Source: an uncultured Acidobacteriota bacterium | GTDB taxonomy: Bacteria > Actinomycetota > Acidimicrobiia > Spongiisociales > ZC4RG35 | Length of the DNA: 64,000 nt | Assembly (NCBI GenBank): GCA_963724825.1 | Contig: CAVRWT010000006.1 | Span: 66,295-130,294 of the forward strand | Reading direction: 5' to 3' | Shown: positions 39,862 through 55,915 of the stretch, piece by piece | Numbering within the stretch: the stretch's first letter is position 1 | Layout of the letters: the number at the start of each line of letters is the position of its first letter | Notes under the pieces: model-generated | Seen by the model: the letters and a program-made list of their open reading frames with translations, nothing else | Database searches by the model: none | Told to the model about the DNA's origin: nothing | Made by a program: the position numbers and the translations under genes

Positions 39862-39870
39862 GGCTGCCCC
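39847..39870 (+). terminator. 8-bp GC hairpin overlapping the small-ORF stop codon
   Basis: GGGGCAGC-tgcctgag-GCTGCCCC. There is no U-tract, so this is weak. Confidence 0.3.
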
Positions 39871-39928
39871 TGCCCGGGTGCGCCCTGTCACCGGGAATAG
39901 CCCAGCCTTCCCAACCTTTGTAACCGGT

Positions 39929-40447: not shown

Positions 40448-40456
40448 GGCAGTGCC

Positions 40457-41083: not shown

Positions 41084-41125
41084 TCGGAGACCCTTCCATT
41101 GCGAGCGAGAATAGGCGCCGGTCTC

Positions 41126-41821
41126 CTACATCAGGAGCCAGCCACCGTCCACGTAGAGGTTGACACCATTCACGGATGGGTTCTCGAGAAGGAAAACCGT
41201 GGCATCCACCACGTCCGCCATCGTCACCAGGCGCTTGGTTGGGGTCCGAGCCAGCACCGCGTCCAATGGTTTGTCCTTCCAGTACGGGCTGTCACCGACG
41301 ATTCCAGGGTGCAGCGCATTGAACCGGACAGGAGAGAGCTCGACCGCGAGGGCTCGAATCATGGAGCTGACGCCCCCGTTGACGGTGGTGACGGTGATCG
41401 ATCCGGGGTAAGGGCGATCCTTGGCCCGGCCTCCGAAGAGAACCACCGAGCTCGTCTCGGTGAACCTGGCGAGTAAAGCGTGGATGACCTCGACGTAGCT
41501 CACCAGCTTCATCGTCGTCAGCTGGGTCCCGGCGTCGATGTCGTACTCCTTGGCGAAGTTGTTGTCCCGGGCAATGGCGGCCAGAACAAGACGCGACACA
41601 GAGCCGACCTCGTGCAGGGCGGGTGCGATAGCTGAAGGATCGGTGAGGTCGAATCCGATGCCCGTCACGTCGCCGTCGATAGTGGAGGCGATCTCGACGG
41701 TGCGGTCGGGGTCGCTACCCGTGATCACCACTGGGCTCCCGCCGGCCGCGTAGTGGCGAGCCACCTCCAACCCGAGGCCGCTGGTTCCCCCCACCACAAT
41801 CACGTTGCCGTTTTCCATCAT
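41126..41821 (-). CDS. SDR family oxidoreductase
   Basis: VVGGTSGLGLEVA glycine-rich motif and SDR length (231 aa). It lies upstream of, and on the same strand as, the XRE-cupin regulator. Confidence 0.75.
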   Translation of the reverse strand: MMENGNVIVVGGTSGLGLEVARHYAAGGSPVVITGSDPDRTVEIASTIDGDVTGIGFDLTDPSAIAPALHEVGSVSRLVLAAIARDNNFAKEYDIDAGTQLTTMKLVSYVEVIHALLARFTETSSVVLFGGRAKDRPYPGSITVTTVNGGVSSMIRALAVELSPVRFNALHPGIVGDSPYWKDKPLDAVLARTPTKRLVTMADVVDATVFLLENPSVNGVNLYVDGGWLLM

Positions 41822-41893
41822 CGAGTTCCTGTTTCTCCGGGTCTCCGACGCCGGCTGGCCGGGAGGCGAAGCCTACATCTGTTAGGCAGGGCG

Positions 41894-41911
41894 TGTGTAG
41901 TGTCACTGATC
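41894..41911 (+). promoter_or_regulatory. Conserved 18-nt motif copy 1 (TGTGTAGTGTCACTGATC) in the SDR/bicupin divergent region
   Basis: Contains the 9-bp palindrome AGTGTCACT. Ends 22 nt upstream of ATG 41933. Confidence 0.45.
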
Positions 41912-41932
41912 GGTCGAGTGCTTGGGAGCCAA

Positions 41933-42829
41933 ATGTCGACGCACATCGTCAAGAAAGCCGGAGATCACGACTATCAGGTGCCGGGAGGCTTCGAAGGGCG
42001 AAGTCAGGGCTACTTCGGGGATGCAATCGTCAACGAGCCTGCGGGTGGGGTTCAGATGGGATTCCAGGTGTCGCGGCTCGATCCCGGCGGGCAGGTGGCC
42101 GGCCACCTTCACTCATTCGAGGAGACCCTCTACGTCATCGATGGGATGGTCGTCGTCGACCTTCCCGAAGGGAGTTACGAGCTCGGTCCCGGCGACTACG
42201 GGCTGATCCCGGTGGGTGTTCCGCACTCGCTTCGGAACACCGGTGGGGCTCCTGCGAGTCTGGCGGAGATGAGGGCGCCACTCCCTCGCGAGCGCCACGA
42301 GTTCGACACCTATTTCGTGGAGGCGCCATCGGCAGGAGTGCCGCTTCGCATCGACGTTCGTGACCCGCGAACTCGCAGCTTTGGCCATATCGACGCGGAG
42401 AACATGGATCCCGCAACGCAGACCCAGGACCGCCTTGCCCTGAGTGCGAGCATGCGCACCGCACTCCTCGTCTACAGCGGGATCTCGGTCAAGATGATGA
42501 TCGACTCCGACCTGGGAGCCGATCTGTCGACGATGTTCATGGTCCAGTACGTGCCGGGCGGATTCGCAGGAGCGCATGACCACCCGCTCGAGGAGGCCTA
42601 TCTCATCCTCGAAGGGGAGGTCGAGGCCGGGTTCGACGGGGTCAAGTACCACATGGTGCCCGGTGACGTGGCCTGGGCAGGTGTCGGGTGCGTTCACGAG
42701 TTTCGCAATGTCGGCACCGGCCCGGTGCGGTGGCTCGAGACTCAGGCGCCACAGCCGCCGGCCCGTCATAGCTACCGGTTCCGGAGGGACTGGGCGTACC
42801 TGACTGAGGCGCTGGCCGCCCCGGACTGA
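41933..42829 (+). CDS. Bicupin protein (two cupin barrels), function unknown
   Basis: ORF 41753-42829 from MSTHIVKKAGD. There are two cupin motifs (GHLHSFEETLYVIDG...PVGVPHSLRN and AHDHPLEEAYLILEG...GCVHEFRN). Confidence 0.7.
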   Translation: MSTHIVKKAGDHDYQVPGGFEGRSQGYFGDAIVNEPAGGVQMGFQVSRLDPGGQVAGHLHSFEETLYVIDGMVVVDLPEGSYELGPGDYGLIPVGVPHSLRNTGGAPASLAEMRAPLPRERHEFDTYFVEAPSAGVPLRIDVRDPRTRSFGHIDAENMDPATQTQDRLALSASMRTALLVYSGISVKMMIDSDLGADLSTMFMVQYVPGGFAGAHDHPLEEAYLILEGEVEAGFDGVKYHMVPGDVAWAGVGCVHEFRNVGTGPVRWLETQAPQPPARHSYRFRRDWAYLTEALAAPD

Positions 42830-42896
42830 GATGAGTGCTGGATCAATCCCTGTCGGCTTTACGGACCTGTTTTGTGAGGCTGAACCGAATGCGATT

Positions 42897-42914
42897 TGTG
42901 TAGTGTGACTTATC
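42897..42914 (+). promoter_or_regulatory. Conserved 18-nt motif copy 2 (TGTGTAGTGTGACTTATC) upstream of the amidohydrolase/ABC operon
   Basis: Intergenic; ends 118 nt upstream of TTG 43032. Confidence 0.45.
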
Positions 42915-43031
42915 AGTGAGTGGCCTCAACACCCCACTTTCGGCCGCGGCGTGCATCGGAGAAAGGGCACTTTTGTTGCCTGGCTCACAGCTTGAGGCGG
43001 TGGCGGACCGACACCAGGACGGAGGGAGCTC

Positions 43032-44324
43032 TTGAAAGGGCGGACCCTGCTTCGCGGTGGGTGTGTTCTGACACTGGGTAAGACCAATTACGCCGAGGCC
43101 GATGTCTTGATCGATGGCGAGAAGATCGTCGAGATCGGCCCCGGGCTTCGGGCCCGCGATGCAGAGGTCGTCGATGCGACCGACACGATTGTCATGCCGG
43201 GATTCGTCGACGCTCACCGCCACGTCTCAGAGTCGCTGTTCCGCAATTTCGGCGATTCGTCTTCATCATCGGTCTACGGGCCTCACTATCAGCCGGATGA
43301 CGCATATGCGGCCACTCTGATCGGGTTGCTCGGCGCCATCGACACCGGGATCACGACGGTGGTCGATTGGTTCGGCATTGGTTCCTCCGAAGCGCTGGTT
43401 GACGCCGCGCTTCAAGCACACGCCGACTCGGGGATCCGGTCGGTCTTTGCCTACGCCGGGCAAGGAGCCGACGGATGGCAATCCGATCTCAAGAGCATCA
43501 CTGCGCGGGCCACATCCCACCCACTGCGCGATCTCGCAGCTGGCGCGGGAACGCCGGCGCGTGACTCATTGGACGAAGTGGCGGCCGATTGGTCGGTCGC
43601 AAGGGATCTCGGTCTGAGAATCCACACTCATGTCGGCGTCGACTCCGAGGTCGCGCCGGGATTGGTGCGCCAAATCTCGGATCGAGGCCTACTTGGCGAT
43701 GACGTCAACTTCGTTCAATGCACCTACCTGGACGATGCCGACTTCGATGCGATCGCATCGTCGGGTGTTTCCGTGTCACTGACCCCATCCAGCGCGATGT
43801 CCGGGGGTCAGGCGAGGCCGCCGATGCAGGAAATGATCGATCGTGGCATTCGCCCCGGCCTGGGCGTGGGCTCCGATCAGTTCGCGCCCGGCGACATGTT
43901 CGCCCAGATGCGGACCGTGATCTCGGTGCAGCACGCCACTCTCTTCGACCTGAAGCTCGCGGGCAAGGCAGGAATTCCAACTCTCCTCAACACCCGCGAG
44001 GTGCTTCGGTATGCCACCGTCAACGGTGCCCGGGCGGCCGGCGTCAGCGACCGGGTGGGAACCCTCGTCCCCGGCTCGCAGGCCGACATCATCCTGCTCC
44101 GCACCGATACGCCCAACATCTTCCCGATCAACGATCCGATCGGAGCGGTGGTCTGGGGGATGGACACTTCGAATGTCGATTGGGTCTTCGTCGCCGGTCG
44201 CCCACTCAAGCGCGGCGGTGTCCTCGAGGGCGATCTGGACAGCGCAGCCGAGCTCGCGAGCAAGGCCCAGCATCGAGTCGCTGAGGCAGCCGGGCTCCTC
44301 GTGGGCTCCGGGGAGGTGAAGTGA
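43032..44324 (+). CDS. Metal-dependent amidohydrolase (TrzA/AtzA/cytosine-deaminase-like superfamily)
   Basis: MPGFVDAHRHV (HxH), an internal HTHV motif, and C-terminal GTLVPGSQADIILL. GGAGGGA SD before TTG 43032. Confidence 0.8.
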   Translation: MKGRTLLRGGCVLTLGKTNYAEADVLIDGEKIVEIGPGLRARDAEVVDATDTIVMPGFVDAHRHVSESLFRNFGDSSSSSVYGPHYQPDDAYAATLIGLLGAIDTGITTVVDWFGIGSSEALVDAALQAHADSGIRSVFAYAGQGADGWQSDLKSITARATSHPLRDLAAGAGTPARDSLDEVAADWSVARDLGLRIHTHVGVDSEVAPGLVRQISDRGLLGDDVNFVQCTYLDDADFDAIASSGVSVSLTPSSAMSGGQARPPMQEMIDRGIRPGLGVGSDQFAPGDMFAQMRTVISVQHATLFDLKLAGKAGIPTLLNTREVLRYATVNGARAAGVSDRVGTLVPGSQADIILLRTDTPNIFPINDPIGAVVWGMDTSNVDWVFVAGRPLKRGGVLEGDLDSAAELASKAQHRVAEAAGLLVGSGEVK

Positions 44325-45371
44325 CGACCACGAAGTCACCGTCATCGGCCCTGACCCGCTTCGTCGTGGCCTCCCGGTACATGCCGGTCTACCTCGCCTG
44401 ATCCTGTTGGTGGTTGTGGCCTCGATCGCAGCGCCCGCCACACTGTCCGAGTGCGGGTCTCGAGCGCGATCGCTCCTCTGGGCACTTATCTGGCTATCGC
44501 AGCACTTGGACAGATGCTGGTGATCATGACCGGCGGCATCGATCTGAGCGTCCCGGGAGTCTTCCTACTCGGCGGCCTGATCATGGTGGGAGTCGGTCAA
44601 CAATCCGACGATCAAATCTGGGTTGCGTTGCTCACCGCTGTCGGGGTGGCTGCTGCTATCGGACTGGTGAACGGGCTCCTCATCGGTGGCCTCAAGTTGA
44701 ATCCGCTCATCGTGACTCTGGCAGTCGGCCAAATCGTGGCCGGAGTCGCCAACCGTTACTACAACACCGTTGCCATCCAGAAGCCGGTGCCGGAGGGGCT
44801 CACCGACTGGGCGACGACACCGTTCCTCGGCGTCAGCCGGATCTTCTGGATCGGAGTTGGGCTGACGCTGGTGCTGGTCGTCATCTTCCGATATACGGGG
44901 GTGGGAAGGAGATTCCAGGTGGTAGGGGCCAACCCGGTCGCCTCCACTGTCATTGGGTTGCGAGTCAATCTCAACCAGATCGCCGCATACGTGGTGGCGG
45001 CCATCTTTTACGCGACGGCCGGGATACTGCTTGCGGCGTCCCTTCGATCGCCCGGAATCACGGTTGGTCTTCCCTACCTGCTGGGCCCGATCGCCGCAGT
45101 GGTCATCGGCGGGGCCTCATTGACCGGTGGTCTGGCGAGCCCGGTGTCGACCTGGGCGGCCGCGTTCTTCCTCGCCGGGCTGAACCAGATGATGCGGGTC
45201 ATTGGGTTGCCAACCGCCCTGCAATTCGTGGTCTTCGGCCTGGTCATCATCGGTGGGATGCTGGTGTCCGGTGATCGCATCATCAAGAGCGTCGAAAGGG
45301 TTTTGCGCGACCGGTCGAGACCGGGGAGGCGCAATGAAGGAACTCTCGCCGTCGAAGGCGGCGAGACGTGA
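44321..45371 (+). CDS. CUT2-type (ribose/xylose-like) ABC transporter permease; 5' region crosses three phases (two apparent 1-nt deletions near 44399 and 44450)
   Basis: GTG 44321 overlaps the upstream TGA (GTGA) and gives TTTKSPSSALTRFVVASRYMPVYLA. Phase 1 continues as LILLVVVASIAAPATLSE (TM1). ORF 44451-45371 then gives RVSSAIAPLGTYLAIAALGQMLVIMTGGIDLSVPG... Length is 1051 nt (3n+1). Confidence 0.7.
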
Positions 45372-45435
45372 GAGAAGGAGAAACTGACCGCAACACAAGA
45401 GCGGGACGCAAACAACAGTCAATGGATGGAGGAGG

Positions 45436-46782
45436 ATGATGATGAAACACAGGGTGTTAACCCTGATCGCAGTTCTGGCGGTCGTCATGGTCGCCTGTAC
45501 AGGCGACGTGACCGAGTCGAGCACCACGGCTGCAGCAGAGCCGACGACTACGGCGGCTGCGGAGCCCACCACCACGGTTGGCGGTGAGACTTCGACAACC
45601 GCCGGGGGCGAGGATCCGCTCGCAGCATATGGCGAGACCACAGCGGCCGACCCAGCGCTGGTCGAGAAGGCAATGGGCACGACGGAAGGCGTACCTGACA
45701 TCGTGCTCGCCGCGGTTGCGCGGGCGAATCAGGATCTCGACGACGACACCATTGCCAAGGCCATCGAGTGCTACACGAATGCAGTCGAGTGCGACACCGG
45801 CACCGGCGGTGAAGTGATCATGGGATACGCCGACGGCGGCGGTCTCAACGTCTGGCGTCAGGTGACCCGGATGGAGGCAATCCTCCAGGCCCTCACCTAC
45901 CCCGAGATCGGCACCATCGTCATGCGTGACGCACAGTGGTCGACCGACCCTGCGGTTCCGATCGGTGACATCAACTACATGGTGGAGCGTGGCGTCACGT
46001 TCATCATCGGCTACCCCGACTGGGGCTCCGCCCTCGGCGACGCAATCAAGGCTGCTGAGGCAGCCGGCATCCCGTACATGTCCTACTCGGCAGGCTACGT
46101 CGGCCTTCCCGGGACCGATGGTGCGCTCGCACCCGGTACTGATTATCTGGGAGTTGTCGGTGAGGACCTCTGTGCCCTCGGCGAGAGCTTTGCCACGATC
46201 ATCAACGAAGGGGTGGGCACGGGCATGATCGGCGTGATGGGTGGGACACCGGGCAACGCCCTGTCCCTCGGATGGCAGCAGTGCCATTTCCCGGCATTGG
46301 CCGACACCATCGAGGTCATCGACCCGCCGGCGGATCCGAACTCCACGACCGGAGACACCTACTGGGCCAACGACATCGCCAAGGACCTTGTGGGCGGATG
46401 GCTTTCGACCAATCCGGACCTCGCTGGGTTCAGCTATGAGTACGCCGACGGGCTGTACACCGCACTTCAGGATGTCGAGATCGGCACCATGACGATCGCG
46501 GTTCGGACCGACGAGCAGACCTTGTTCTGCGACTGGGCCGAGCGAAACAACCCGAACTACAACATCTGGTACTCGGCGGGAGGCAACTTCCAGTCGAGGG
46601 TCGCGGTGACCGCTCAGATGATGAATCTGCAGGGTGCGGAGATCCCGGGTGAGATCATCGTTCCCCACGTGATGCGGCAAGTCACGACAGCCGATTGCAA
46701 CCCCGACCGGGTGACCCCGACCGTTTCCGGCACCTCGCTGGTGCCCGATCCGGTCCTCGCCCAGATGTACCCGGCTGGATGA
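45436..46782 (+). CDS. ABC transporter substrate-binding lipoprotein (periplasmic-binding-protein type I), ligand unknown
   Basis: GGAGGAGG SD, lipobox VVMVACTG, a TTAAAEPTT x2 linker, 448 aa. It lies between the permease and ATPase genes of one operon. Confidence 0.75.
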   Translation: MMMKHRVLTLIAVLAVVMVACTGDVTESSTTAAAEPTTTAAAEPTTTVGGETSTTAGGEDPLAAYGETTAADPALVEKAMGTTEGVPDIVLAAVARANQDLDDDTIAKAIECYTNAVECDTGTGGEVIMGYADGGGLNVWRQVTRMEAILQALTYPEIGTIVMRDAQWSTDPAVPIGDINYMVERGVTFIIGYPDWGSALGDAIKAAEAAGIPYMSYSAGYVGLPGTDGALAPGTDYLGVVGEDLCALGESFATIINEGVGTGMIGVMGGTPGNALSLGWQQCHFPALADTIEVIDPPADPNSTTGDTYWANDIAKDLVGGWLSTNPDLAGFSYEYADGLYTALQDVEIGTMTIAVRTDEQTLFCDWAERNNPNYNIWYSAGGNFQSRVAVTAQMMNLQGAEIPGEIIVPHVMRQVTTADCNPDRVTPTVSGTSLVPDPVLAQMYPAG

Positions 46783-48374
46783 GTAACGGCGATCTCGGAG
46801 GAGAGTCGGCGACCGGGACACCGGTCCTCGAGCTCGACGGTGTCTATCGCCAGTTCGGCGCGGTTCGAGCGCTGACAGATGTCAGCTTCGACTGCCGGGC
46901 TGGTGAGGTTCACGCCCTCGTGGGCGAGAACGGCTCGGGCAAGTCGACTCTCCTCGGGATTGCCAGCGGGTTCGTAGAGCCCGATCGGGGATCGGTGCGC
47001 ATCGGGGGAGCCCGATTGCGCACCGATTCTCCGGCTCTCGCCAGAAAGCTCGGCCTGGCGATGGCCTACCAGGACACCTCATCGATCCTGGCCCAGCCGG
47101 TCAAGAACAATCTCTACATGGCAGCGCCCCCTGATGAACGGCCGCCCTACTGGAGACGGAAGAAGTGGGCCCGGCGCCTATTGGGCGAGTTCGACCTCGA
47201 CTTCGAGTTGTTTCCCGACGCGCCCGTTGGATTCCTGACACTCGCCGAGCGTCAGATGTTCGAGGTAGCCAAGGCGCTGGTATCGAATCCCAAGGTGCTG
47301 CTTCTCGACGAGCCGACGACGGCCCTTGGCCCCGATGAAGTCGAGGCTTTGCACCGAACCGTCGCCGCATGCCGGCGGCGTGGCGTGGGCGTTGTCTATG
47401 TGAGTCATCGTCTGCCCGAGATCCTGGAGATCGCGGACCGGATAACCGTGCTTCGTGACGGGAAGACCAGGGGGACGTTCGACGCTCGTTCCACCTCCGA
47501 GCGTGACCTGGTCGAGCTCATTGTGGGACGTCCCTTCGAGGCAGCGTTCCCACCCGCAGCTCCGCTCACCGGCGAGCGACGAGAGGTGCTCGTGGTCGAT
47601 GCTCTGCAAGGCCAGTCGTTTGGCCCGGTCAGCTTCACCCTTGAAAGCGGGGAAATAGTTGGGATCGCAGGGGCGGAAGGCAACGGTCAACCCCAGCTCT
47701 TCGACACTCTTTCCGGGAGAACGCCACCACGCGCCGGCCGGGTCACATGTGACGAGAAGGGCCTCACCCTGATTTCGACACACGAGGCGGTCAATTCCGG
47801 GATCATGTTGCTGCCCGGCGATCGCAAGCAAGAGGCGTTGATGCCGGTCCTCGGCGTGCGCGTCAATTCCACCGTCCAGTCACTCAAGCTCTTCAGCGTT
47901 TTCGGGCTCTTGAAGAGACGTGCCGAACGTGCCGCCGTGAAGGATCTGGTCGCCCGACTCGAGGTTCGCACCCCCTCCTTGGAGCAGCCTGTCGAGTTCC
48001 TCTCCGGTGGCAACCAGCAGAAGGTTTCGGTATCCCGAACATTTCTCAGGGAGCCCGCGGTGATCCTCGCCTATGAGCCGACTCAAGGGGTGGACGTCGG
48101 GTCCCGTTTCGACATCTACAAGGCACTACGGGCCCGGACCGATGCCGGGGCCGCATTGTTGGTCAAGTCGAGCGACCCGATCGAGCTCTCGGGCCTCTGC
48201 GATCGAGTCTTGGTGATGTCACGGGGAACGATCATCGAAGAGATCCCGGGCGACGAGCTCGACGAGTTGCGCATCGTGGAGGCCATCGTCCGCGGGCCGG
48301 GGCTGTCCCGTGCCGGACGCTCGCCATTCGGTGTCGCCATGCCGAAGGCTCCGTCCAAGGAGGTCGTTTCATGA
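46779..48374 (+). CDS. Sugar-type ABC transporter ATP-binding protein with two NBDs (RbsA/XylG-like)
   Basis: ORF 46695-48374 from MSNGDLGG (ATGA overlap with the SBP stop). Contains GENGSGKST, LLLDEPTTALG, a second LSGGNQQK, and AYEPTQGVD. Confidence 0.9.
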   Translation: MSNGDLGGESATGTPVLELDGVYRQFGAVRALTDVSFDCRAGEVHALVGENGSGKSTLLGIASGFVEPDRGSVRIGGARLRTDSPALARKLGLAMAYQDTSSILAQPVKNNLYMAAPPDERPPYWRRKKWARRLLGEFDLDFELFPDAPVGFLTLAERQMFEVAKALVSNPKVLLLDEPTTALGPDEVEALHRTVAACRRRGVGVVYVSHRLPEILEIADRITVLRDGKTRGTFDARSTSERDLVELIVGRPFEAAFPPAAPLTGERREVLVVDALQGQSFGPVSFTLESGEIVGIAGAEGNGQPQLFDTLSGRTPPRAGRVTCDEKGLTLISTHEAVNSGIMLLPGDRKQEALMPVLGVRVNSTVQSLKLFSVFGLLKRRAERAAVKDLVARLEVRTPSLEQPVEFLSGGNQQKVSVSRTFLREPAVILAYEPTQGVDVGSRFDIYKALRARTDAGAALLVKSSDPIELSGLCDRVLVMSRGTIIEEIPGDELDELRIVEAIVRGPGLSRAGRSPFGVAMPKAPSKEVVS

Positions 48375-48404
48375 CGAACTACATCGACTCGTGCGCGACA
48401 GGAG

Positions 48405-50825
48405 GTGCGCAAGGTCCTGCGCAACGCCCGCGACAAGAACAAATGGCGGAAGGTCGTCAAGGTTCGCCTCTGGATGCCGGTCGCCCTCCAGATCCTCCTC
48501 ATCATCGGTGTTGTTTGGTACACCAACTCCCGCTTCCCCGGGTTCGTCAACACCTCGAACATCGCCAACATCCTTCTCCTGGCAGTGCCCCTGGCGATCG
48601 TCGTCATCGGGCAGACCCACGCACTTCTCGTCGGATACCTCGATCTCTCGGTGGGTGCGATGATCAGCCTCGGGGTGGTCATCGCTTCCTTCTGGATCCC
48701 TGCCGGTGCGACGACCAGCCAGATGCTGACCGGGGTGGCGACGATCTTCGCCTGCGGCCTGGCGCTGGGTCTGGTCAACGCCGGCCTGGTTCGAGGCGTG
48801 AAGATTCCGTCGATCATCGCCACGCTGGCGACTCTCAGCATTCTCGACGGGATCTCACTGACGCTTCGAGCCACGCCCGGAGGCACCATCGATCCGGCAT
48901 TCACCTCGTTGCTGCGAGGCGGTGTCGGACCGGTGCCGCTCTCTTTCATCCTGGTGGTGGTGGGAGCCGGCATTCTCGACCTCTGGCTTCACTCCAGCGG
49001 GTCCGGGCTTCAGGTGCGCTCGGTTGGATTCGACGAGAGGTCGGCGAGGCGATCCGGAGTCCGGACCACCTGGGTGAGGGTCCGCGCCCTGGTCCTCTCC
49101 GCATCGTTTGCTGCGCTGGCGTCGTTCTTCGTGATGACACGCTCCGGGGTGGGCAATGCGCAGATCGGAACGAGTTATGCCCTGAACAGCATCACGGCAG
49201 CGGTGCTGGGTGGCGCCGCCCTCTCCGGGGGGAGGGCAACCTTCACCGGAGGCGTGGTCGCTTCGGTCCTGCTCGCCGTGATCATCACCGTGCTCCCCTT
49301 CCTCGGCCTCGGCCCGGAATACGGGTTGATGATCATCGGAGTCCTGGTCCTGATCGGGATCATCCTCTTCCAGGTTGGGGACATCAAGGAGCTGGTGAAG
49401 CGGAACTACCGTCGGGCCCGACGAATAGTCGTCGGAACCCGTCCCCCGGCTGCTGCCGAGCTTCCCGTCCTCTATCCCGTCGGAACCGACTTCAAAGTGA
49501 TGCCAGTCGGTCGCAAGCTCATCACGGGCGGGATCGTTCTCAGCCTCGACTCGAGCGTTGGGGATTTCAACAACGCGGACATCCTCATCGATGGGGACAA
49601 GATCCTCGCGGTGGGGCCCAATCTCCAAAACGGGGAGGCCGAGCACATCGACGCCACCGGGATGATCGTCATGCCCGGGTTCGTCGACTCCCACCGGCAC
49701 ACCTGGGAAGGCATCCTTCGCAACATCGGCACCGACGTTCCTCTCGAGGGGCGGACCAGCTACATCTCATTCGTCCTCCACAAGCTGGCTCCGGCGTTCC
49801 GACCCGAGGATGTCTATGCGGGGAACCTCGTTTCGACGCTGGGAGCCATCGACGCCGGGGTGACCACCCTTCTCGACTGGTCTCACATACAGGCCTCGCC
49901 CGCCCACACGGACGCCGCGGTGAAGGCGTTGGGGGATTCCGGGATGCGAGCCGTCTTCGCCTACGGGTTCCCATGGTGGGGCAAGTGGGAAGAGCGCCAA
50001 CCGAGTTGGTTCGTGCGGACTGCCACCGAGCATTTCTCTTCGAACAGTCAGCTCCTCAGTCTGGCCCTCGCCGCCCCCGGCCCGGAGTTCGTCGACTTCG
50101 AGGTGGCCCGTGACCACTGGAAGCTGGCTCGTGAGACCGGGGCGAGGATCACGGCCCATGTCGGGGTCGGCACCTACGGCCAGGACGCCAAGGTCCAGGA
50201 GATGGGGGAGGCAGGGCTGCTCGGTCCTGACACCACCTACATCCACTGCACGACTCTCAACGACACCGAGATCCAAATGATCGTTGATACCGGCGGCACG
50301 GTGTCGCTGGCGTCACCGGTCGAGATGATGATGGGCCACGGGATGCCGCCCATCCAGAAGTTCCTTGACCGTGGGTTGAGTCCCAGTCTGAGCATCGACG
50401 TCGAGACCAACGTCCCTGCGGACATGTTCAACCAAATGCGCTCCGTTGTCGCGTTACAACGAGCGCTCGTCAACGGGACCGACAAGTCTCAGATCTCGAT
50501 GCGCGAGGTCCTCGGGTGGGCCACGATCGAGGGCGCAAAGGCCAATGGCCTCGACTCGAAGGTCGGAACCCTCACCCCGGGCAAGCAAGCCGACGTCATC
50601 ATGCTCCGCACCAACCGGGTGAATGTGACCCCGCTCAACGACCCGGCGACCGCAGTGGTTGCGGGTATGGACACCTCGAATGTGGACACGGTCTTGATCG
50701 CAGGGCGGGTCATGAAGCAGAAGGGCAAATTGCTCCACGTTGACTGGCCGGCGGTTCGTCGGATGGTCGGCGAGTCTCGGGACTACGTGGTCGAGAAGTC
50801 GGGTTTCAAACTCCCCAAGATTTGA
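48405..50825 (+). CDS. One uninterrupted 806-aa ORF: CUT2 ABC permease (about aa 1-345) fused in frame to a second amidohydrolase (from MPVGRK at 49500). It may be two genes merged by an indel
   Basis: Permease part: VVIGQTHALLVGYLDLSVGA and 8-10 TM helices, ending KELVKRNYRRARR. Amidohydrolase part: MPGFVDSHRHT, AHVGVG, GTLTPGKQADVIML, a paralog of 43032-44324. The permease 5' end may really start at ATG 48371 (ATGA overlap with the ATPase stop), which needs one more phase change. Confidence 0.6.
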   Translation: MRKVLRNARDKNKWRKVVKVRLWMPVALQILLIIGVVWYTNSRFPGFVNTSNIANILLLAVPLAIVVIGQTHALLVGYLDLSVGAMISLGVVIASFWIPAGATTSQMLTGVATIFACGLALGLVNAGLVRGVKIPSIIATLATLSILDGISLTLRATPGGTIDPAFTSLLRGGVGPVPLSFILVVVGAGILDLWLHSSGSGLQVRSVGFDERSARRSGVRTTWVRVRALVLSASFAALASFFVMTRSGVGNAQIGTSYALNSITAAVLGGAALSGGRATFTGGVVASVLLAVIITVLPFLGLGPEYGLMIIGVLVLIGIILFQVGDIKELVKRNYRRARRIVVGTRPPAAAELPVLYPVGTDFKVMPVGRKLITGGIVLSLDSSVGDFNNADILIDGDKILAVGPNLQNGEAEHIDATGMIVMPGFVDSHRHTWEGILRNIGTDVPLEGRTSYISFVLHKLAPAFRPEDVYAGNLVSTLGAIDAGVTTLLDWSHIQASPAHTDAAVKALGDSGMRAVFAYGFPWWGKWEERQPSWFVRTATEHFSSNSQLLSLALAAPGPEFVDFEVARDHWKLARETGARITAHVGVGTYGQDAKVQEMGEAGLLGPDTTYIHCTTLNDTEIQMIVDTGGTVSLASPVEMMMGHGMPPIQKFLDRGLSPSLSIDVETNVPADMFNQMRSVVALQRALVNGTDKSQISMREVLGWATIEGAKANGLDSKVGTLTPGKQADVIMLRTNRVNVTPLNDPATAVVAGMDTSNVDTVLIAGRVMKQKGKLLHVDWPAVRRMVGESRDYVVEKSGFKLPKI

Positions 50826-50827
50826 AG

Positions 50828-52048
50828 ATGCATGACGTCTGCATCGTCGGAGCCGGGTTGGTGGGGATGAGCGTTGGCCGGGCCGTCCTCGACCAGTATC
50901 CAGGTTCCTCCGTCGTGGTTCTGGATAAGGAGGCCGGGGTGGCCGCCCATCAGAGCAGCCACAACAGCGGCGTTGCCCATTCCGGTCTCTACTACCGCCC
51001 CGGATCCCTCAAGGCACGGCTTTGTGTGGAAGGGCGCGCCGAGCTGGAGCGACTCTGTGACTCAGCCTCCATCCCGTTCCGTCGGCTGGGGAAGTTGGTG
51101 ATCGCCACCGAGCCGGCCGAGCTCGGAGCCCTCGATGAGCTGGAGCGCCGGGGAACAGCCAACGGGTTGACCGGGATGCGTCGGCTGGACCTTGCAGGCA
51201 TTCGTGAGATCGAGCCGGCGGCGACCGGGCTCCAGGGGCTACACGTGCCCGAAGCCGGTGTCGTGGACTTTCCTGGAGTGGCGGACCACCTTGCTGCCGA
51301 ACTGCAACGGAACGGCGCCGAGGTGCGTACCGGCCATGCCGTGACCGCAATCGACCACATAGCCGATGGGGCCCGGATCATGGCCGGTGACCAGGAAATC
51401 CGAGCCCGGATCATGGTCAATTGCGCCGGGCTCCACTCCGACCGGGTTGCCGCTCTGGCAGGTGTGAAGAGCGATATCCGGATCGTCCCCTTCCGGGGCG
51501 AGTACTACACCCTCGATCCGGAGGTCTCCCATCTGGTCAGGGGGCTCGTCTATCCGGTGCCGGACCCACGGTTCCCATTCCTCGGAGTGCACTTCACCCG
51601 CCGGGTGGACGATTCGGTGGAGGTGGGGCCTAACGCGGTGCTCGCCTTGGGCCGGGAGCAGTATCGGGGCTCTCCAGTCGACTGGGGTGACGTCAAGGAT
51701 GTCGCGACCCTTGGAGGGTTCTGGCGATTGGCCGCCAAGCATTGGCTGACCGGCGGAGCCGAAGTTCTCAGATCGAAATCGAGGTCCCTCTATGCCCGCT
51801 CCGCCCAGCGACTGATCCCCGCCCTCAGAAGTGAGCACCTTCGTCATGGAGGCGCCGGTGTGCGGGCCCAGGCGCTGGGTCGTGATGGCCGATTGATCGA
51901 CGACTTCGTCATCGAAGAGGTCGGGGCGACGTTGCACGTCCTCAATGCTCCATCGCCGGGGGCCACGGCGAGCCTCGCGATCGGAGCCCATATTGCAGGC
52001 CTGCTCAGGCCCCAGTTGGCCGGGTTGACCGGTGGAAGGGGTGTGTAG
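50828..52048 (+). CDS. lhgO: L-2-hydroxyglutarate oxidase/dehydrogenase (FAD-dependent)
   Basis: Aligns by eye along its whole length with remembered E. coli LhgO: VGAGLVGMS, HQSSHNSGVAHSGLYY, PFRGEYY, YPVPDPRFPFLGVHFT, GVRAQAL, NAPSPGATASL. Confidence 0.85.
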   Translation: MHDVCIVGAGLVGMSVGRAVLDQYPGSSVVVLDKEAGVAAHQSSHNSGVAHSGLYYRPGSLKARLCVEGRAELERLCDSASIPFRRLGKLVIATEPAELGALDELERRGTANGLTGMRRLDLAGIREIEPAATGLQGLHVPEAGVVDFPGVADHLAAELQRNGAEVRTGHAVTAIDHIADGARIMAGDQEIRARIMVNCAGLHSDRVAALAGVKSDIRIVPFRGEYYTLDPEVSHLVRGLVYPVPDPRFPFLGVHFTRRVDDSVEVGPNAVLALGREQYRGSPVDWGDVKDVATLGGFWRLAAKHWLTGGAEVLRSKSRSLYARSAQRLIPALRSEHLRHGGAGVRAQALGRDGRLIDDFVIEEVGATLHVLNAPSPGATASLAIGAHIAGLLRPQLAGLTGGRGV

Positions 52049-52059
52049 TGTGACTGTTC
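52042..52059 (+). promoter_or_regulatory. Conserved 18-nt motif copy 3 (TGTGTAGTGTGACTGTTC) upstream of the M24/E1 operon
   Basis: Overlaps the lhgO stop codon. Ends 77 nt upstream of ATG 52136. It is followed by GTGAC-n9-GTCAC. Confidence 0.45.
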
Positions 52060-52135
52060 ACTGGTCACCCAGCCTGCCGAGGGTCGCGGTTCGAAAACGT
52101 GATGAAGAACTGACAGGAAAGAGGAGGAGAGAGCC

Positions 52136-53389
52136 ATGACCGACTTTCCGGTAGCCACCACCCCGGCCCCTGGGGTCATGGGGGTGGATTGGGAGGATCG
52201 CGTCGATTTTCCGCGACTGCGCGCCTATCGCCTCGAGCGGGTACGGCAGCAACTGGAGGCCAATGGCCTGGGCGCGGTGCTCCTCTTCGAGACCTCCAAC
52301 ATTCGCTACGCCACCGCCACCCAGATCGGCTACTGGGCTTTCAACAAGGGTGAGCGCTTTGCACTGATCACGAGGAAGGGCCGTCCCCGAATCTGGGACT
52401 TCGGCTCGGCAGCCAAGGCGCATCGTCGGCAACTGCCCGAGATGTATGACCTGGAGAACTCGATCGGTGGGAATACCGGCCTCCAAGGCGCCATCGGTCC
52501 CAGCTCGGGGCTCCACACCCGTGCCGCTGCCGAGATCGCGGCGGTGCTTCGTGACGAAGGGCTTATCGACGATCTCCTGGGAGTCGACATGGCGGAGACC
52601 GCGGTATTCCTTGCCCTGCAGAAGGAAGGCCTCCAGGTCACCGATGGCCAGCAGGCGATGATGCTCGCCCGTGAGATCAAGAGCTCGGACGAGATCGTCC
52701 TCCTCTCCCAGGCCAGCGCGATGGTGGACGGCGTCTATCACGAGATCTATGAGACTTTGAAGCCCGGGATCCGGGAATCCGACATCGTGGCTTTGGCCCA
52801 CGGGCGCCTGTTCGAGATGGGCTCCGAGTTCGTCGAGGCCATCAATTCGATCGCCGGGGAGAGGTGCAGCCCGCACCCGCATGTCTTCAGCGACCGGATG
52901 ATCCGGCCCGGCGACCAGGCTTACTTCGACATCATCCACGCCTACAACGGCTACCGGACCTGTTACTACCGGACCTTCGTCGTGGGGCGGGCGACCACCG
53001 CACAGCGCGACGCCTTCAAGCAGTCGCGGGAGTGGATGGACGCCGCAATCGAATTGGTTCGACCAGGCAACACCACCGACATGATCGCCAAGGTGTGGCC
53101 AAGGGCCGAGGACTTCGGCTTCGTGGATGAGATGGACGCCTTCGGCCTCCAATTCGGCCACGGCGTCGGGGTCGGCCTGCACGAGCGGCCGATCATCAGC
53201 AGGCTCAACTCACTCGACGACCCGATCGAGATCAAGGAGGGCATGTACTTCGCCCTCGAGACTTACGCACCGGCCACGGACGGGCGATCGGCAGCCAGGA
53301 TCGAAGAGATGATGGTGGTCACCGCCGACGGGCCACAGATCACCACGCTCTTCCCCTGCGAGGAGTTGATGGTGGCGAATGAGTACTGA
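52136..53389 (+). CDS. M24 family metalloenzyme (creatinase / DddP-like subfamily), substrate unknown
   Basis: AGAGGAGGAG SD; 417 aa. N-domain LLFETSNIRYATATQIGYW...WDFGSAAKAH, and a pita-bread domain (HGVGVGLHERP, FALETY). The subfamily assignment rests on memory only. Confidence 0.7.
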   Translation: MTDFPVATTPAPGVMGVDWEDRVDFPRLRAYRLERVRQQLEANGLGAVLLFETSNIRYATATQIGYWAFNKGERFALITRKGRPRIWDFGSAAKAHRRQLPEMYDLENSIGGNTGLQGAIGPSSGLHTRAAAEIAAVLRDEGLIDDLLGVDMAETAVFLALQKEGLQVTDGQQAMMLAREIKSSDEIVLLSQASAMVDGVYHEIYETLKPGIRESDIVALAHGRLFEMGSEFVEAINSIAGERCSPHPHVFSDRMIRPGDQAYFDIIHAYNGYRTCYYRTFVVGRATTAQRDAFKQSREWMDAAIELVRPGNTTDMIAKVWPRAEDFGFVDEMDAFGLQFGHGVGVGLHERPIISRLNSLDDPIEIKEGMYFALETYAPATDGRSAARIEEMMVVTADGPQITTLFPCEELMVANEY

Positions 53390-54449
53390 GGTCGACGCCG
53401 GGCTCTACGACTACGCCCAGCGCCCACCCCGGCTCCCGAAGGCGACCAAGCCGGAGAACGACCGTCTCGAAATCGACCTCGAAACCCGCATCGAGATGTT
53501 CGAGATGCAACAGGTGCTCCGACAGTTCGAGGATCGGGTCTACGACCTCTTCATGCAGAATCTGGTCAAGGGGACGAGCCACCTTTCGTTGGGTATGGAG
53601 GCCATCGCCACCGGCGTGGCCAAGGCGATGCGCCCCGACGACTACACCTTCGCCACCTATCGGGGCCATGCCCATACCGTCGCCAGGGGGGCTCCCCTCG
53701 GACCGGTGCTGGCGGAGCTCCTGGGGAGGGACACCGGCATCCTCGGGGGTAAGGGCGGCTCGATGCACCTCACCTCCGTCGAGCACGGGATGATGGGCAG
53801 CTACGCCATCATCGGCGCCCATCTCTGCGTCGCCAACGGCGCAGCCTGGTCGGCGCAACTACGGGGAACCGATCAGGTGGCTGTGGCCTTTTTCGGCGAC
53901 GGCACCACCAACATCGGAGCCTTCCACGAGGCCCTCAACCTGGCGTCGATTTGGCACCTCCCCGTGGTCTTCGTCTGTGAGAACAACCTGTACATGGAGT
54001 ACACGCCGATCGACTTGGTGACCGCGGCTTCGAATCCCGCCGCCGGTCGGGCGCCCGCCTACGACCTCGAGCAGATCGTGATCGACGGCAACGACGCCGA
54101 TGAGGTGTATGTGACCGCGAGATTGGCCATCGAGAAGGCCCGACGGGGCGAAGGGCCTTCTCTGATCGAGGCAGTCACTTACCGGCACGGCGGCCACAGT
54201 CGGGCCGACCCCGGCAAGTATCGCCCCGCCCAGGAGGTCGAGGCCTGGATGGCGCACGACCCGCTGCCGACCTATCACCAGCGCCTCCTGCGCCTCGGGG
54301 TCAACGAATCCAGGCTTTCCGACATCGTCCATCAGGTCACCGATCGCGTCGAGGAAGCCACAGCCTTTGCCAAGGCCGGGGAACGCCCGGGAGAACAAGT
54401 GCTGATGACCGACGTCTGGGCCGATGGGGGGTCGTCTTGGCGGAACTGA
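53379..54449 (+). CDS. Thiamine-diphosphate-dependent 2-oxoacid dehydrogenase E1 component, alpha subunit
   Basis: YRGHAH, GGKGGSMH, the GDGTTNIGAFHEALNLA TPP-binding motif, and VCENNLY. Confidence 0.85.
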   Translation: MSTEVDAGLYDYAQRPPRLPKATKPENDRLEIDLETRIEMFEMQQVLRQFEDRVYDLFMQNLVKGTSHLSLGMEAIATGVAKAMRPDDYTFATYRGHAHTVARGAPLGPVLAELLGRDTGILGGKGGSMHLTSVEHGMMGSYAIIGAHLCVANGAAWSAQLRGTDQVAVAFFGDGTTNIGAFHEALNLASIWHLPVVFVCENNLYMEYTPIDLVTAASNPAAGRAPAYDLEQIVIDGNDADEVYVTARLAIEKARRGEGPSLIEAVTYRHGGHSRADPGKYRPAQEVEAWMAHDPLPTYHQRLLRLGVNESRLSDIVHQVTDRVEEATAFAKAGERPGEQVLMTDVWADGGSSWRN

Positions 54450-55411
54450 GCTACCGCGAGGCCGTCGCCCGGGGAATCGCCCAGGAGATGCGGCGCGATC
54501 CGACGCTGGTCATGCTCGGCGAGGACATTGCCGGCGCCGGGGGGGTTTTCAAGACGACAGTCGGCCTGCTCGAGGAATTCGGCCCGACCCGGATCCGCGA
54601 CACCCCGATCTCCGAGCAGGCGATCCTGGGGGCGGCGATGGGGGCGGCGATGACCGGGGTGCCGGTGATCGCCGAGATCATGTTCTCCGACTTCCTGGCG
54701 GTGTGCTTCGACATGGTCGCCAATGAGATGGCGAAGACGAGGTACATGACCGGCGGGCAGTTCACGGTCCCGGTGGTGATTCGCACCGCCAACGGGGGCG
54801 GAGTGCGGTTCGGCGCCCAGCACAGCCAGAGCGTCGAGAACTGGTGCATGATGATCCCCGGGCTCAAGGTGGTGGCGCCGTCGACCCCTGAGGACGTCGT
54901 CGGCCTGATGGCGGCGGCGGTTCGCGATCCCGACCCCGTCGTCTTCTTCGAGCACAAGTCGCTGATGGCAACCAAGTCAGAGGTTCCAGACACCGAGATC
55001 GTCGGAACACTCGGTGAGGCCCGGGTGGTTCGCGCCGGCAGCGACTGCACGATTGCGGCCCTGGCCTTCATGGTGCCTCGGGCCCTGGAGGCGGCCGAGC
55101 GTCTCGCCGCCGAGGGGGTCTCGGCCGAGGTGATCGACCTTCGGAGCCTGGTCCCGCTCGACACCAAGGCGATCCTGAGCTCGGTGGCGAAGACGGGCTG
55201 GCTGTTCACCGTCGAGGAGAATCCGCGGTTGTGTGGTTGGGGGGCCGAAGTGGCGTCGATCGTCGCCGAGGAGGCTTTCTGGGATCTGGATGGCCCGGTG
55301 ATTCGGATCACCACCCCCCACATTCCCCTTCCCGCAGCTGAGAATCTCGAGGATCTAGCGATCCCGTCGGTGGACCGGATCTACGAGACGATCAGGAAGT
55401 CACTCGGCTGA
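54437..55411 (+). CDS. 2-oxoacid dehydrogenase E1 component, beta subunit
   Basis: YREAVARGIAQEM, GEDIAGAGGVFKTT, RDTPISEQ, FFEHK. The TTG start overlaps the alpha gene by 13 nt. Confidence 0.9.
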   Translation: MAELSYREAVARGIAQEMRRDPTLVMLGEDIAGAGGVFKTTVGLLEEFGPTRIRDTPISEQAILGAAMGAAMTGVPVIAEIMFSDFLAVCFDMVANEMAKTRYMTGGQFTVPVVIRTANGGGVRFGAQHSQSVENWCMMIPGLKVVAPSTPEDVVGLMAAAVRDPDPVVFFEHKSLMATKSEVPDTEIVGTLGEARVVRAGSDCTIAALAFMVPRALEAAERLAAEGVSAEVIDLRSLVPLDTKAILSSVAKTGWLFTVEENPRLCGWGAEVASIVAEEAFWDLDGPVIRITTPHIPLPAAENLEDLAIPSVDRIYETIRKSLG

Positions 55412-55415
55412 GTGC

Positions 55416-55839
55416 TCAACGCACCAGCAGTAAGTCACAGGTGCCGCTGTGGACCACGTCCTGGGCAGTGGAGCCGAGGATGAGCTTCTTGACCCATCCC
55501 AGGCCGCGGGTGCCGACTACCAGGAGTTCGGCTTCGATCTCGGCGCAGTAGTCGACCAGTGCCCTGCCGGGCGAGCCCTCGCGGTCGACACGCACTACCT
55601 CCAAGCCGGCGTCCTCCAGGAGTGGTTGCGCTGACTCCCAAGCGACGGCCCGCTGCTCGCTGGCCATGTCACGGGTGTCGACTGTCACGTCGTCGGGAAA
55701 ATGGAGCAGGGCAGGGCTCAGGTCGGTCGCGTGGAGGATGTGCAGATCTGCGCCATGCAGCCGCGCCTCGTCGATGGCCTTGGCGAGAGCCGCGGAGGCT
55801 CGGATCAGAGCCGTCTATTCCGACCACGACATGTCCCAC
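55416..55839 (-). CDS. Universal stress protein (UspA family); 1-nt insertion near 55798
   Basis: The N-part GHVVVGIDGSDPS is in ORF 55669-55929. The C-part (AALAKAIDEARLHGADLHILHA...LLVVGTRGLGWVKKLILGSTAQDVVHSGTCDLLLVR) continues through ORF 55416-55688. Length is 424 nt (3n+1). Confidence 0.75.
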
Positions 55840-55915
55840 AAGCCAAGTTTGGCATAGGTGCCGTTGATGTCGTGCCCGTCCTATGTGCCATAGTCCAGAG
55901 CCGTCGAATTCGGAG

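Follow-up and report, generated by a model that had tools for sequence, protein, structure and literature searches.

Sugar importers of the CUT2 type, of which RbsABC is the prototype and LsrACDB and YtfQRT-YjfF are examples with two permeases, combine BPD_transp_2 permease domains, an ATPase polypeptide with two nucleotide-binding domains (NBDs) and a cluster-B solute-binding protein (SBP). Vectorial uptake, or group translocation, is known from the phosphotransferase system (PTS), from fatty-acid transport coupled to acyl-CoA synthetase and from LplT-Aas fusions. The concept common to these systems is that the solute is modified at the cytoplasmic face of its transporter and so trapped. Here, we describe a gene cluster at positions 41126-55411 of a 64,000-nucleotide stretch of DNA (the window; contig CAVRWT010000006.1, positions 66,295 to 130,294) from the metagenome-assembled genome (MAG) of an uncultured member of the Acidimicrobiia. 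It encodes an importer with the three CUT2 features named above, in which one permease is continuous with an amidohydrolase, AH2. On balance, we favour the reading that the cluster, as one inducible regulon, serves to take up and break down a small polar compound of monosaccharide size, in which the tethered AH2 would hydrolyse the compound and the product would pass to a pathway built on an M24-family enzyme and a thiamine pyrophosphate (TPP)-dependent E1 pair.

Gene calls for the window came from an open reading frame (ORF) listing combined with Pfam and NCBIfam scans. Permease 2 and AH2 are encoded by one uninterrupted ORF of 806 aa (48405-50825, + strand), in which BPD_transp_2 covers residues 52-317 and Amidohydro_1 residues 421-769, with the junction near 49500. 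For comparison we used the best 80 of 373 AH2 relatives among species genomes, nearly all of them soil MAGs of Acidimicrobiia and other Actinomycetota with 80-98% identity; these are referred to below as the related loci. The fusion runs without a stop codon in all 80, and the methionine at the junction is missing in most. About 4500 related proteins are present in public data, and the 120 best listed were all full-length fusions of 806-823 aa. Permease 2 has about ten hydrophobic (transmembrane) segments, and nine Lys/Arg residues are found in each of its N-terminus and its linker to AH2. That these two parts are rich in Lys/Arg indicates that the AH2 domain would lie in the cytoplasm. The full-length AlphaFold2 (AF2) model of the fusion had a pLDDT of 50.5 and a pTM of 0.39, the alignment being too shallow. 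In the literature that we searched on permease-enzyme fusions, no ABC importer permease joined to a catabolic hydrolase is described. A permease fusion of another type was observed in an acidimicrobial genome without AH2 (G044), where a 500-aa ORF (L090:13636-15138) in an ABC system beside M24-E1 genes carries SnoaL_2 N-terminal to BPD_transp_2; a similar ORF of 494 aa occurs in L094.

The other importer components are permease 1 (44321-45371), a lipoprotein SBP (45436-46782) and a tandem-NBD ABC ATPase (46695-48374, with two ABC_tran stretches and a true start probably near 46815), all on the + strand. Both permeases carry BPD_transp_2 (PF02653), and the ATPase is best matched by AraG, XylG and RbsA at 340-380 bits, all under the equivalog cut-offs. 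The SBP has the lipobox VMVAC followed by a Thr/Ala-rich linker, and it matches Peripla_BP_4 weakly. Its AF2 model (pLDDT 89) has a ribose-binding-protein-like fold. Of the 50 Foldseek matches listed for the model, almost all were sugar- or polyol-binding ABC proteins at 13-19% identity, RbsB being the first (E 9e-14), and RbsB and other CUT2 SBPs matched it at E 1e-13 to 1e-10. Domain content and the predicted SBP fold support the assignment of the importer to the CUT2 type (TC 3.A.1.2). Permease 1 starts with GTG at 44321, where a GTGA overlap joins it to the AH1 stop. Relative to loci L009, L013, L017 and L018, its gene has lost one nucleotide near 44397 and gained two near 44460. Because these two indels break the frame, the longest ORF is shortened (44451-45371) and lacks the first transmembrane helix. 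We read permease 1 as either a pseudogene or an assembly error.

A second amidohydrolase, AH1 (43032-44324, +), is a soluble PRK08204-family paralogue 41% identical to AH2. It is always encoded directly 5' of permease 1, and the two genes are usually start/stop-coupled. The uncharacterised PRK08204 subfamily model NF006056 (cut-off 391 bits) is passed by AH2 with 521 bits and failed by AH1 with 367 bits. The best characterised equivalog for the amidohydrolases, N-ethylammeline chlorohydrolase, reaches 173 bits against a cut-off of 609, and a literature search on PRK08204 found nothing relevant. The HxH motif, H220 (strand 5), H249 (strand 6), D300 (strand 8) and E302 of AH2 are invariant in 81/81 sequences, and AH2 looks catalytic. 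Where deaminases carry HxxE (aligned with HLAE of 3HPA and HIHE of 4F0R), both AH1 and AH2 have HVGV, and the position of the glutamate is Val in every one of the 81 AH2 sequences. The AH1 of this genome retains HxH and the β5 His, while its β6 His is changed to Gln and its β8 Asp to Gly. The same changes are found in the three nearest relatives (L009, L013 and L018), and one or both of these residues are lost in 16 of 54 AH1 sequences, scattered as well as within the window's clade. The mean pairwise identity is 85% for AH2 and 62% for AH1. To judge from its residues, AH1 would be under relaxed constraint and catalytically degenerate in this genome. Comparison of active sites revealed a departure in each of the three hydrolase-like enzymes: AH2 without the HxxE glutamate, AH1 without two further residues, and the M24 enzyme with an Asp-to-Cys replacement.

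Several further observations were made on this family. In two of 60 loci (L029:3511-5822 and L073:3567-5862), AH1 is in frame with permease 1 without a stop codon, so that both permeases would bear an amidohydrolase; as both loci show other tblastn frame breaks, assembly indels may be responsible. A third, stand-alone paralogue (AH3) is found with the bicupin and short-chain dehydrogenase/reductase (SDR) genes beside M24-E1 in some genomes, one of which has no importer. Stand-alone PRK08204 homologues, 42-44% identical to AH2, are encoded on plasmid p2 of Cupriavidus pinatubonensis (L088) and plasmid pRZP2 of Rhodococcus sp. ZPP (L089). Their neighbours encode an FAD monooxygenase, an alpha/beta hydrolase, a fumarylacetoacetate-hydrolase-family protein and a VOC (glyoxalase-fold) protein, a gene set that resembles the kpi 4-hydroxypyridine cluster, whose ring-cleaving dioxygenase has an amidohydrolase fold. 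In a complete-looking genome of the same genus (G003, 3 contigs), AH1 and AH2 match their profile only in pieces (C1:144632-152430), and the locus appears to be pseudogenised.

The third part of the cluster encodes an M24B-fold enzyme of creatinase/prolidase/DddP-like type (52136-53389, +; Peptidase_M24, PF00557, and Creatinase_N, PF01321), followed by E1 alpha (53379-54449, +; E1_dh), which overlaps the M24 gene by 11 nt, and E1 beta (54437-55411, +; Transket_pyr and Transketolase_C), which overlaps E1 alpha by 13 nt. The metal ligands of the M24 enzyme are D265, C276, H342, E375 and E390 (D-C-H-E-E). At the position of the second Asp, Cys (Cys276 here) is invariant in 44 of 44 homologues from different phyla, among them those of Phaeobacter and Streptomyces. 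The enzyme scores 101 bits with the DddP equivalog (cut-off 600) and 85 bits with DoeA (cut-off 613). As read from the sequence, the TPP motif FFGDG...CENN is intact in E1 alpha, which stays below the cut-off for pyruvate dehydrogenase (PDH; 317 vs 394 bits), and E1 beta passes NF006667 (357 bits, cut-off 321). This is the fourth E1 pair of the genome, and neither E2 nor E3 was found among the genes of the cluster or those just downstream. Directly 3' of E1 beta lies an aldo-keto reductase gene (YghZ / L-glyceraldehyde-3-phosphate reductase-like; 55883-56945, +) that is split between two frames, the ORF at 55883-56470 matching profile positions 1-126 and that at 56370-56945 positions 127-288; the split is either a frameshift or an assembly error. 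In L009, L013 and L017, E1 beta is followed by an unbroken ORF of about 340 aa, which may be the same gene. A convergent ORF of the Usp family (55416-55688, −) matches the Usp profile over positions 62-141 only, and may be truncated or have a miscalled start.

Upstream of AH1 lie a bicupin gene (41933-42829, +, with ATG at 41933) and an SDR oxidoreductase gene (41126-41821, −; adh_short_C2). The bicupin has two Cupin_2 stretches, each with an HxH...E...H metal site as read from the sequence. Its best PDB match is the quercetinase YxaG (E 1e-7), and no equivalog was reached: (S)-ureidoglycine aminohydrolase and other named bicupins gave 30 bits against a cut-off of 200. In many related loci the SDR gene is tied to the bicupin gene on either side of the cluster. 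LhgO, an L-2-hydroxyglutarate oxidase (50822-52048, +), is encoded with a 4-nt overlap onto the AH2 stop and passes NF008726 over its full length (506 bits, cut-off 299). Of the 80 related loci, only 6, the closest relatives, have it at this place, and because of this narrow occurrence LhgO is a sublineage-specific accessory outside the core pathway. Beyond the SDR gene, a regulator with an XRE-family helix-turn-helix and a cupin domain (HTH_3 and Cupin_2; 40457-41083, −) has a PuuR-like architecture. The next gene (39842-40447, +; Pfam Glyoxalase) encodes a VOC protein, and a VOC gene adjoins the XRE gene also in the closest relatives L009 and L013, so that the VOC protein could be a member of the cluster.

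A preliminary description of this DNA, made from its letters and ORFs, had named the gene classes from the XRE-cupin regulator to E1 beta, and every one of them was recovered by Pfam and NCBIfam. Its proposal that the cluster is uncharacterised is borne out, since LhgO alone passes a characterised equivalog cut-off in NCBIfam and no description was found in the papers searched. PDB sequence searches with AH2, M24, bicupin, SBP and E1 alpha likewise gave no close characterised relative. Other points have to be amended. Of the bicupin and SDR, described as divergently transcribed, the SDR does diverge, and the bicupin lies on the + strand and is transcribed in the same direction as the importer genes. 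The four-gene CUT2 importer said to lie between two amidohydrolases is of the CUT2 type, with permease 2 and AH2 forming one ORF. The label TrzA/AtzA-like is a weak one, since AH1 and AH2 both lack the HxxE glutamate of the deaminases and AH1 of this genome lacks two further residues. The word "island" is to be dropped in its compositional sense, because the GC content of 0.63-0.64 across the cluster equals that of the flanks.

Support for the view that the cluster acts as one functional unit, which the preliminary description had assumed, came from a repeat search that identified the 14-nt motif TGTGTAGTGTSACT. With at most one mismatch, exactly three copies are present in the 2.55-Mb genome, each of them preceding one of the three + strand units of the cluster; the reversed motif, used as a control, had zero matches in the genome. 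Copy 1 (TGTGTAGTGTCACT, 41894-41907, +) lies 25 nt before the bicupin ATG, and copy 2 (TGTGTAGTGTGACT, 42897-42910, +) lies 121 nt before the AH1 start. Copy 3 (TGTGTAGTGTGACT, 52042-52055, +) overlaps the end of lhgO and lies 80 nt before the M24 gene, where a motif-bearing gap had already been noticed. The motif is kept before the same genes in relatives: upstream of the bicupin gene in L009, L013 and L018, and more widely upstream of AH1, of the bicupin gene, and of the M24 gene or a gene like that for 3-hydroxyisobutyrate dehydrogenase (HIBADH) ahead of M24. With up to two changes it occurs in 48 of the 80 related loci, in 44 of them upstream of AH1.

Within the motif are TAGTGT, a hexamer of the TANNNT type, and the palindrome AGTG-N-CACT. 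Distant loci (L021, L031, L055, L081 and others) have another conserved block, AGTGGCAGTGATCGG, about 25 nt downstream of the motif and upstream of AH1. The block carries further AGTG repeats, which suggests an operator array. An Rfam search at E <= 1 over positions 40400-55900 gave only a chance snoRNA match, and RNAalifold run on 14 sequences of the motif and the conserved block that follows predicted zero pairs. This RNAalifold result speaks against a leader RNA in the motif region. Since neither an Rfam family nor a consensus RNA structure was found, our reading is that the element acts at the DNA level, as a promoter or an operator. Consensus scans for sigma-70 promoters and intrinsic terminators found nothing at the three intergenic regions or downstream of E1 beta. 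The obvious candidate for a regulator acting on the motif would be the XRE-cupin protein. Its gene adjoins the cluster in 37 of the 80 related loci, 31 of which also have the motif, and a 48%-identical homologue adjoins M24 in Streptomyces sp. NBC_01450.

The association of the genes is conserved among relatives. The order AH1, permease 1, SBP, ATPase and permease 2::AH2 is kept in all related loci long enough to show the region. The M24-E1 alpha-E1 beta genes are found downstream of this core, upstream of it on the same strand, or upstream and divergent, and the bicupin-SDR pair stands after E1 beta or before AH1. A HIBADH-like gene is present in 19 of the 80 related loci and lies between AH2/LhgO and M24 in the nearest relatives; this gene before M24 is missing from the window and from L013. 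The gene set is thus found together in many genomes, in several arrangements. In 151 genomes of the order, AH2 is present in 34 (about a fifth) and the M24 orthologue in 61. M24 occurs in 29 of the 34 AH2-positive genomes, compared with 32 of 117 AH2-negative ones (Fisher p = 2e-9); among genomes at least 90% complete, the counts are 21 of 22 and 25 of 88. Four of the five AH2 genomes without M24 are under 80% complete. As M24 is found in most genomes with AH2 and in a number of those without it, the importer/amidohydrolase genes have a phyletic distribution that is nested in that of a wider M24-E1 module. Taken together, the genome-unique motif, the conserved synteny and the co-occurrence of AH2 and M24 place the arrangement far beyond chance.

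The wider module extends to other phyla. M24 homologues of 51-59% identity are encoded on plasmids of Phaeobacter, Tritonibacter, Marinovum, Streptomyces, Rhodococcus and Paenarthrobacter. The gene order in Phaeobacter is ThuA, HIBADH-like, CUT2 ABC, SDR, SBP, SDR, M24, E1 alpha, E1 beta, lipoyl protein, an aldehyde dehydrogenase (ALDH) like succinate-semialdehyde dehydrogenase (SSADH), E2 and LpdA. That in Streptomyces is HIBADH-like, M24, ALDH, VOC, fused E1 alpha-beta and E2, and Acidimicrobiia without AH2 have genes for LacI, a CUT2 ABC system, ThuA, HIBADH, M24, E1 alpha-beta, ALDH and SDR. A pattern scan with the M24 signature GYRTCYY found at least 600 species genomes in Actinomycetota, Chloroflexota, Dormibacterota and Proteobacteria, and the carriers include cultured Phaeobacter (P. 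gallaeciensis DSM 26640, on plasmid pGal_E78), Streptomyces, Mycolicibacterium (M. vanbaalenii) and Microbacterium (M. album). Among the neighbours of M24, counted in the best 80 of these at least 600 signature loci, the most frequent is a HIBADH-like gene (55), followed by ORFs containing E1 beta (35), LacI (33), an ABC ATPase of the hydrophobic amino acid (HAAT) type (32), SSADH-like ALDH (30), E2 (26), a Peripla_BP_6 SBP (25), GntR (16) and VOC (16, in loci of other Actinomycetota). NCBIfam scans of the HIBADH, ALDH, VOC and AH3 proteins of the module gave none above an equivalog cut-off, and no paper describing the M24 module, the Phaeobacter cluster included, was found in the literature searched. 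In the genome under study (G000), the sole good candidate for an SSADH-like ALDH (63% identity) is at C5:77355-78759, where two tblastn segments overlap in both query and DNA, which suggests that this gene is frameshifted.

Which genes are present, that permease 2 and AH2 are fused, that the units share a motif, that synteny is kept and that the distribution is nested are observations; the function that follows is our interpretation. The CUT2-type importer, with its lipoprotein SBP, two different permeases and tandem ATPase, would bring the compound into the cell. AH2, a predicted metal-dependent enzyme on the cytoplasmic C-terminus of permease 2, would hydrolyse the compound as it emerges from the channel, and the compound, once cleaved there, would be trapped and committed to catabolism. 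The bond cut by AH2 would most likely be C-N (in an amide, amidine, ureido or lactam group) and less likely that of a lactone, because the nearest characterised relatives and the PuuR-like regulator point to C-N hydrolysis; a nitrogen-containing substrate is plausible. A second hydrolytic step could be the task of AH1 in most genomes. Here, where two of its canonical catalytic residues are gone, AH1 would more likely be a structural partner of the tethered AH2. The product would then enter the pathway of the Cys-variant M24 enzyme and the E1 pair, in an order of steps that we propose provisionally, and E1 would rely on E2 and E3 encoded at other places in the genome. A supporting part would fall to the bicupin and the SDR, and LhgO is also present in this lineage. 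A stronger version of the proposal, which we hold tentatively and consider rather doubtful, is an obligatory "hydrolytic group translocation" in which an AH2/AH1 heterodimer under the channel exit cleaves every imported molecule before its release into the cytoplasm.

A number of points weigh against the favoured reading. The cluster has no gene for handling ammonia, urea or amines, and none of the close homologues has a known substrate or activity. AH2 lacks the HxxE glutamate of the deaminases to which it is nearest. C-N hydrolysis is not established, because the superfamily includes lactonases, isomerases and the ring-cleaving dioxygenase KpiC (PMC7356986). The nearest relatives of KpiC are enamidase-like (PMC7356986); in considering a likeness of AH2 to KpiC through these described relatives, we did not find enamidase among the PDB matches of AH2. 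The AF2 model of the fusion is too poor (pLDDT 50) to show docking of AH2. As 17 loci have the motif and no XRE gene within 10 kb, the assignment of the regulator is uncertain. Shared ancestry is not taken into account in the co-occurrence statistics. In the assembly, the frame of permease 1 is broken near its 5' end, and no HIBADH orthologue was found elsewhere in this genome. The copy in the window may itself be partly impaired, as its permease 1 has indels, its AH1 is degenerate, its HIBADH gene is missing and the aldo-keto reductase gene that follows is frameshifted.

How these points are to be weighed depends on the alternatives. The missing deaminase glutamate and the lack of nitrogen-handling genes would be expected if the substrate were free of nitrogen, with the amidohydrolases acting as lactonases, hydratases or isomerases on a sugar acid, a lactone or a polyol derivative, and the bicupin and SDR working as a ketol-isomerase and reductase like KduI/KduD or IolB. 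Uronate isomerase and several sugar lactonases are members of the amidohydrolase superfamily, the SBP fold is of the sugar or polyol type, PRK08204 homologues of Sinorhizobium, Cupriavidus and Rhodococcus lie within ring-cleavage or hydrolase clusters, and ThuA, LacI and Amidohydro_2 genes occur in M24-module loci. Nevertheless, sequence resemblance to KduI, IolB or UxaC is lacking or very slight. C-N or C-Cl bonds on N-heterocycles are what all of the nearest characterised amidohydrolases cut, and the regulator is built like PuuR, the regulator of an amine pathway. A nitrogen-free substrate is less likely than the favoured reading, but a serious rival to it. The opposite view is that AH1 and AH2 are TrzA/AtzA-type deaminases that open an N-heterocycle or guanidino compound stepwise, with a core C5 branch through LhgO and a subsequent 2-oxoacid decarboxylation by E1. 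Among characterised proteins, TRZ/ATZ and nucleobase deaminases are indeed the best relatives of both amidohydrolases. LhgO is assigned to its equivalog with confidence and is translationally coupled to AH2, and M24 is creatinase/DddP/DoeA-like. The HxxE glutamate is missing from both enzymes, however, and AH1 of this genome lacks two more catalytic residues. The SBP fold is of the sugar-binding kind and not that of nucleobase/nucleoside-binding proteins (Bmp), and M24-E1 genes elsewhere keep company with LacI regulators, ThuA and sugar or HAAT-type ABC transporters. The C5 branch, proposed in the preliminary description to run via L-2-hydroxyglutarate to 2-oxoglutarate, cannot be a core feature when LhgO is present in 6 of 80 related loci only. 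This explanation thus appears quite improbable. Less probable again is that the M24-HIBADH-ALDH-E1/E2 module is an orphan route of pantothenate/pantoate degradation, to which the importer and amidohydrolases were added to import and cleave a pantoyl amide such as pantetheine. The route would begin with amide hydrolysis and continue through pantoate 4-dehydrogenase, aldopantoate dehydrogenase and dimethylmalate dehydrogenase, after which 2-oxoisovalerate would be passed to the E1/E2 complex. In its enzyme classes and their order, the module agrees with the classical pantothenate pathway (EC 3.5.1.22, 1.1.1.106, 1.2.1.33 and 1.1.1.84), and HIBADH adjoins M24 in 55 of the best 80 diverse loci, with SSADH-like ALDH in 30 and E2 in 26. 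As late as 2023, it was not known which protein is the pantothenase (PMC10393543). The whole argument is one of pattern matching, and this genome has no HIBADH orthologue and a sole ALDH candidate that appears split. In addition, the E1 is nearer to the PDH/acetoin type than to the branched-chain 2-oxoacid dehydrogenase (BCKDH) type, no beta-alanine catabolic genes are nearby, and the module seems too widespread for a trace vitamin.

Two further explanations question whether there is a working pathway at all. The locus could be decaying in this strain: the two indels leave the frame of permease 1 unrestored, AH1 lacks two catalytic residues, the HIBADH gene of the nearest relatives is missing, the downstream aldo-keto reductase is in two frames, and the same-genus genome G003 has AH1 and AH2 in pieces. 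On the other hand, the remaining genes are all full length and the three motifs are intact. The changes in AH1 are old and tolerated, since L009, L013 and L018 have the same ones. HIBADH is missing from L013 too, and in a MAG the indels may be assembly errors. Decay is thus a less likely account, to be kept in mind. The idea that the three units are unrelated operons that are neighbours by chance could appeal to LhgO, HIBADH, bicupin and SDR coming and going between genomes, and to the many loci that hold the AH1-ABC-AH2 core only. It is already contradicted by the evidence and hardly credible: the shared motif is genome-unique, the same genes are linked in at least three orders or orientations, and AH2 and M24 are strongly associated phyletically.

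If the favoured reading of an inducible uptake and breakdown regulon is right, its substrate would matter beyond this genome. The cluster is present in about a fifth of the genomes of an order of abundant uncultured soil Acidimicrobiia, and the M24-E1 module is present in at least 600 species genomes of several phyla. No function was assigned to either the module or the cluster in the literature searched. To identify the substrate would close a gap in the turnover of carbon or nitrogen in soil, and could give sequences to orphan enzyme activities. As cultured carriers of the M24 module exist, part of the problem is experimentally tractable now. A permanent fusion of an ABC permease and a hydrolase also provides a natural test case for transport-coupled catalysis, by metabolic trapping or channelling, and the AH1/AH2 pair is a case of a retained paralogue drifting towards a pseudoenzyme. 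Hydrolytic group translocation, if true, would be an undescribed coupling of an ABC importer to catalysis that feeds a widespread orphan pathway of the Cys-variant M24 enzyme.

The comparison with known enzymes shows where the cluster departs from them. Members of the TRZ/ATZ group (COG0402; AtzA, TrzN, MTA/SAH deaminase and 8-oxoguanine deaminase) have the same Amidohydro_1 TIM barrel as AH2 and are its best PDB and NCBIfam relatives, and their HxH, β5 His, β6 His and β8 Asp are all present in AH2. They differ in that the catalytic Glu is replaced in AH2 (HVGV) and an invariant D-x-E follows strand 8. In the cluster, moreover, one paralogue is tethered to a transporter while the other is repeatedly degenerate. 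DddP (dimethylsulfoniopropionate, DMSP, lyase), DoeA/EutD (ectoine hydrolase) and creatinase share Creatinase_N and the pita-bread domain with the M24 enzyme and are its best equivalog matches. The scores are nevertheless far under the cut-offs, the second metal Asp is Cys here, and the gene is coupled to a TPP-dependent E1 and, elsewhere, to HIBADH and ALDH. The acetoin and 2-oxoacid dehydrogenases (AcoABCL, PDH and BCKDH) have a heteromeric E1 alpha/beta with an intact TPP motif like that of the locus, and the lipoyl protein, E2 and LpdA are present in the homologous Phaeobacter and Streptomyces clusters. The locus itself has no E2 or E3, its E1 pair is a fourth one, and its E1 alpha remains under the PDH equivalog cut-off.

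With regard to transport, the cluster differs from CUT2 importers in that an amidohydrolase of about 440 aa is found on the cytoplasmic C-terminus of permease 2 in every orthologue here, and every importer component scores beneath all equivalog cut-offs. Compared with its structural neighbours in the PDB (13-19% identity), the SBP has some 85 residues more, and three additional helices at its N-terminus. Compared with the known systems of vectorial uptake, the transporter here is a binding-protein-dependent ABC importer, and the modification would be a hydrolysis. A binding-protein-dependent ABC importer encoded with a catabolic operon is a known arrangement. What is new is the undescribed fusion of an importer permease to a hydrolase, together with the orphan pathway that lies downstream of it.

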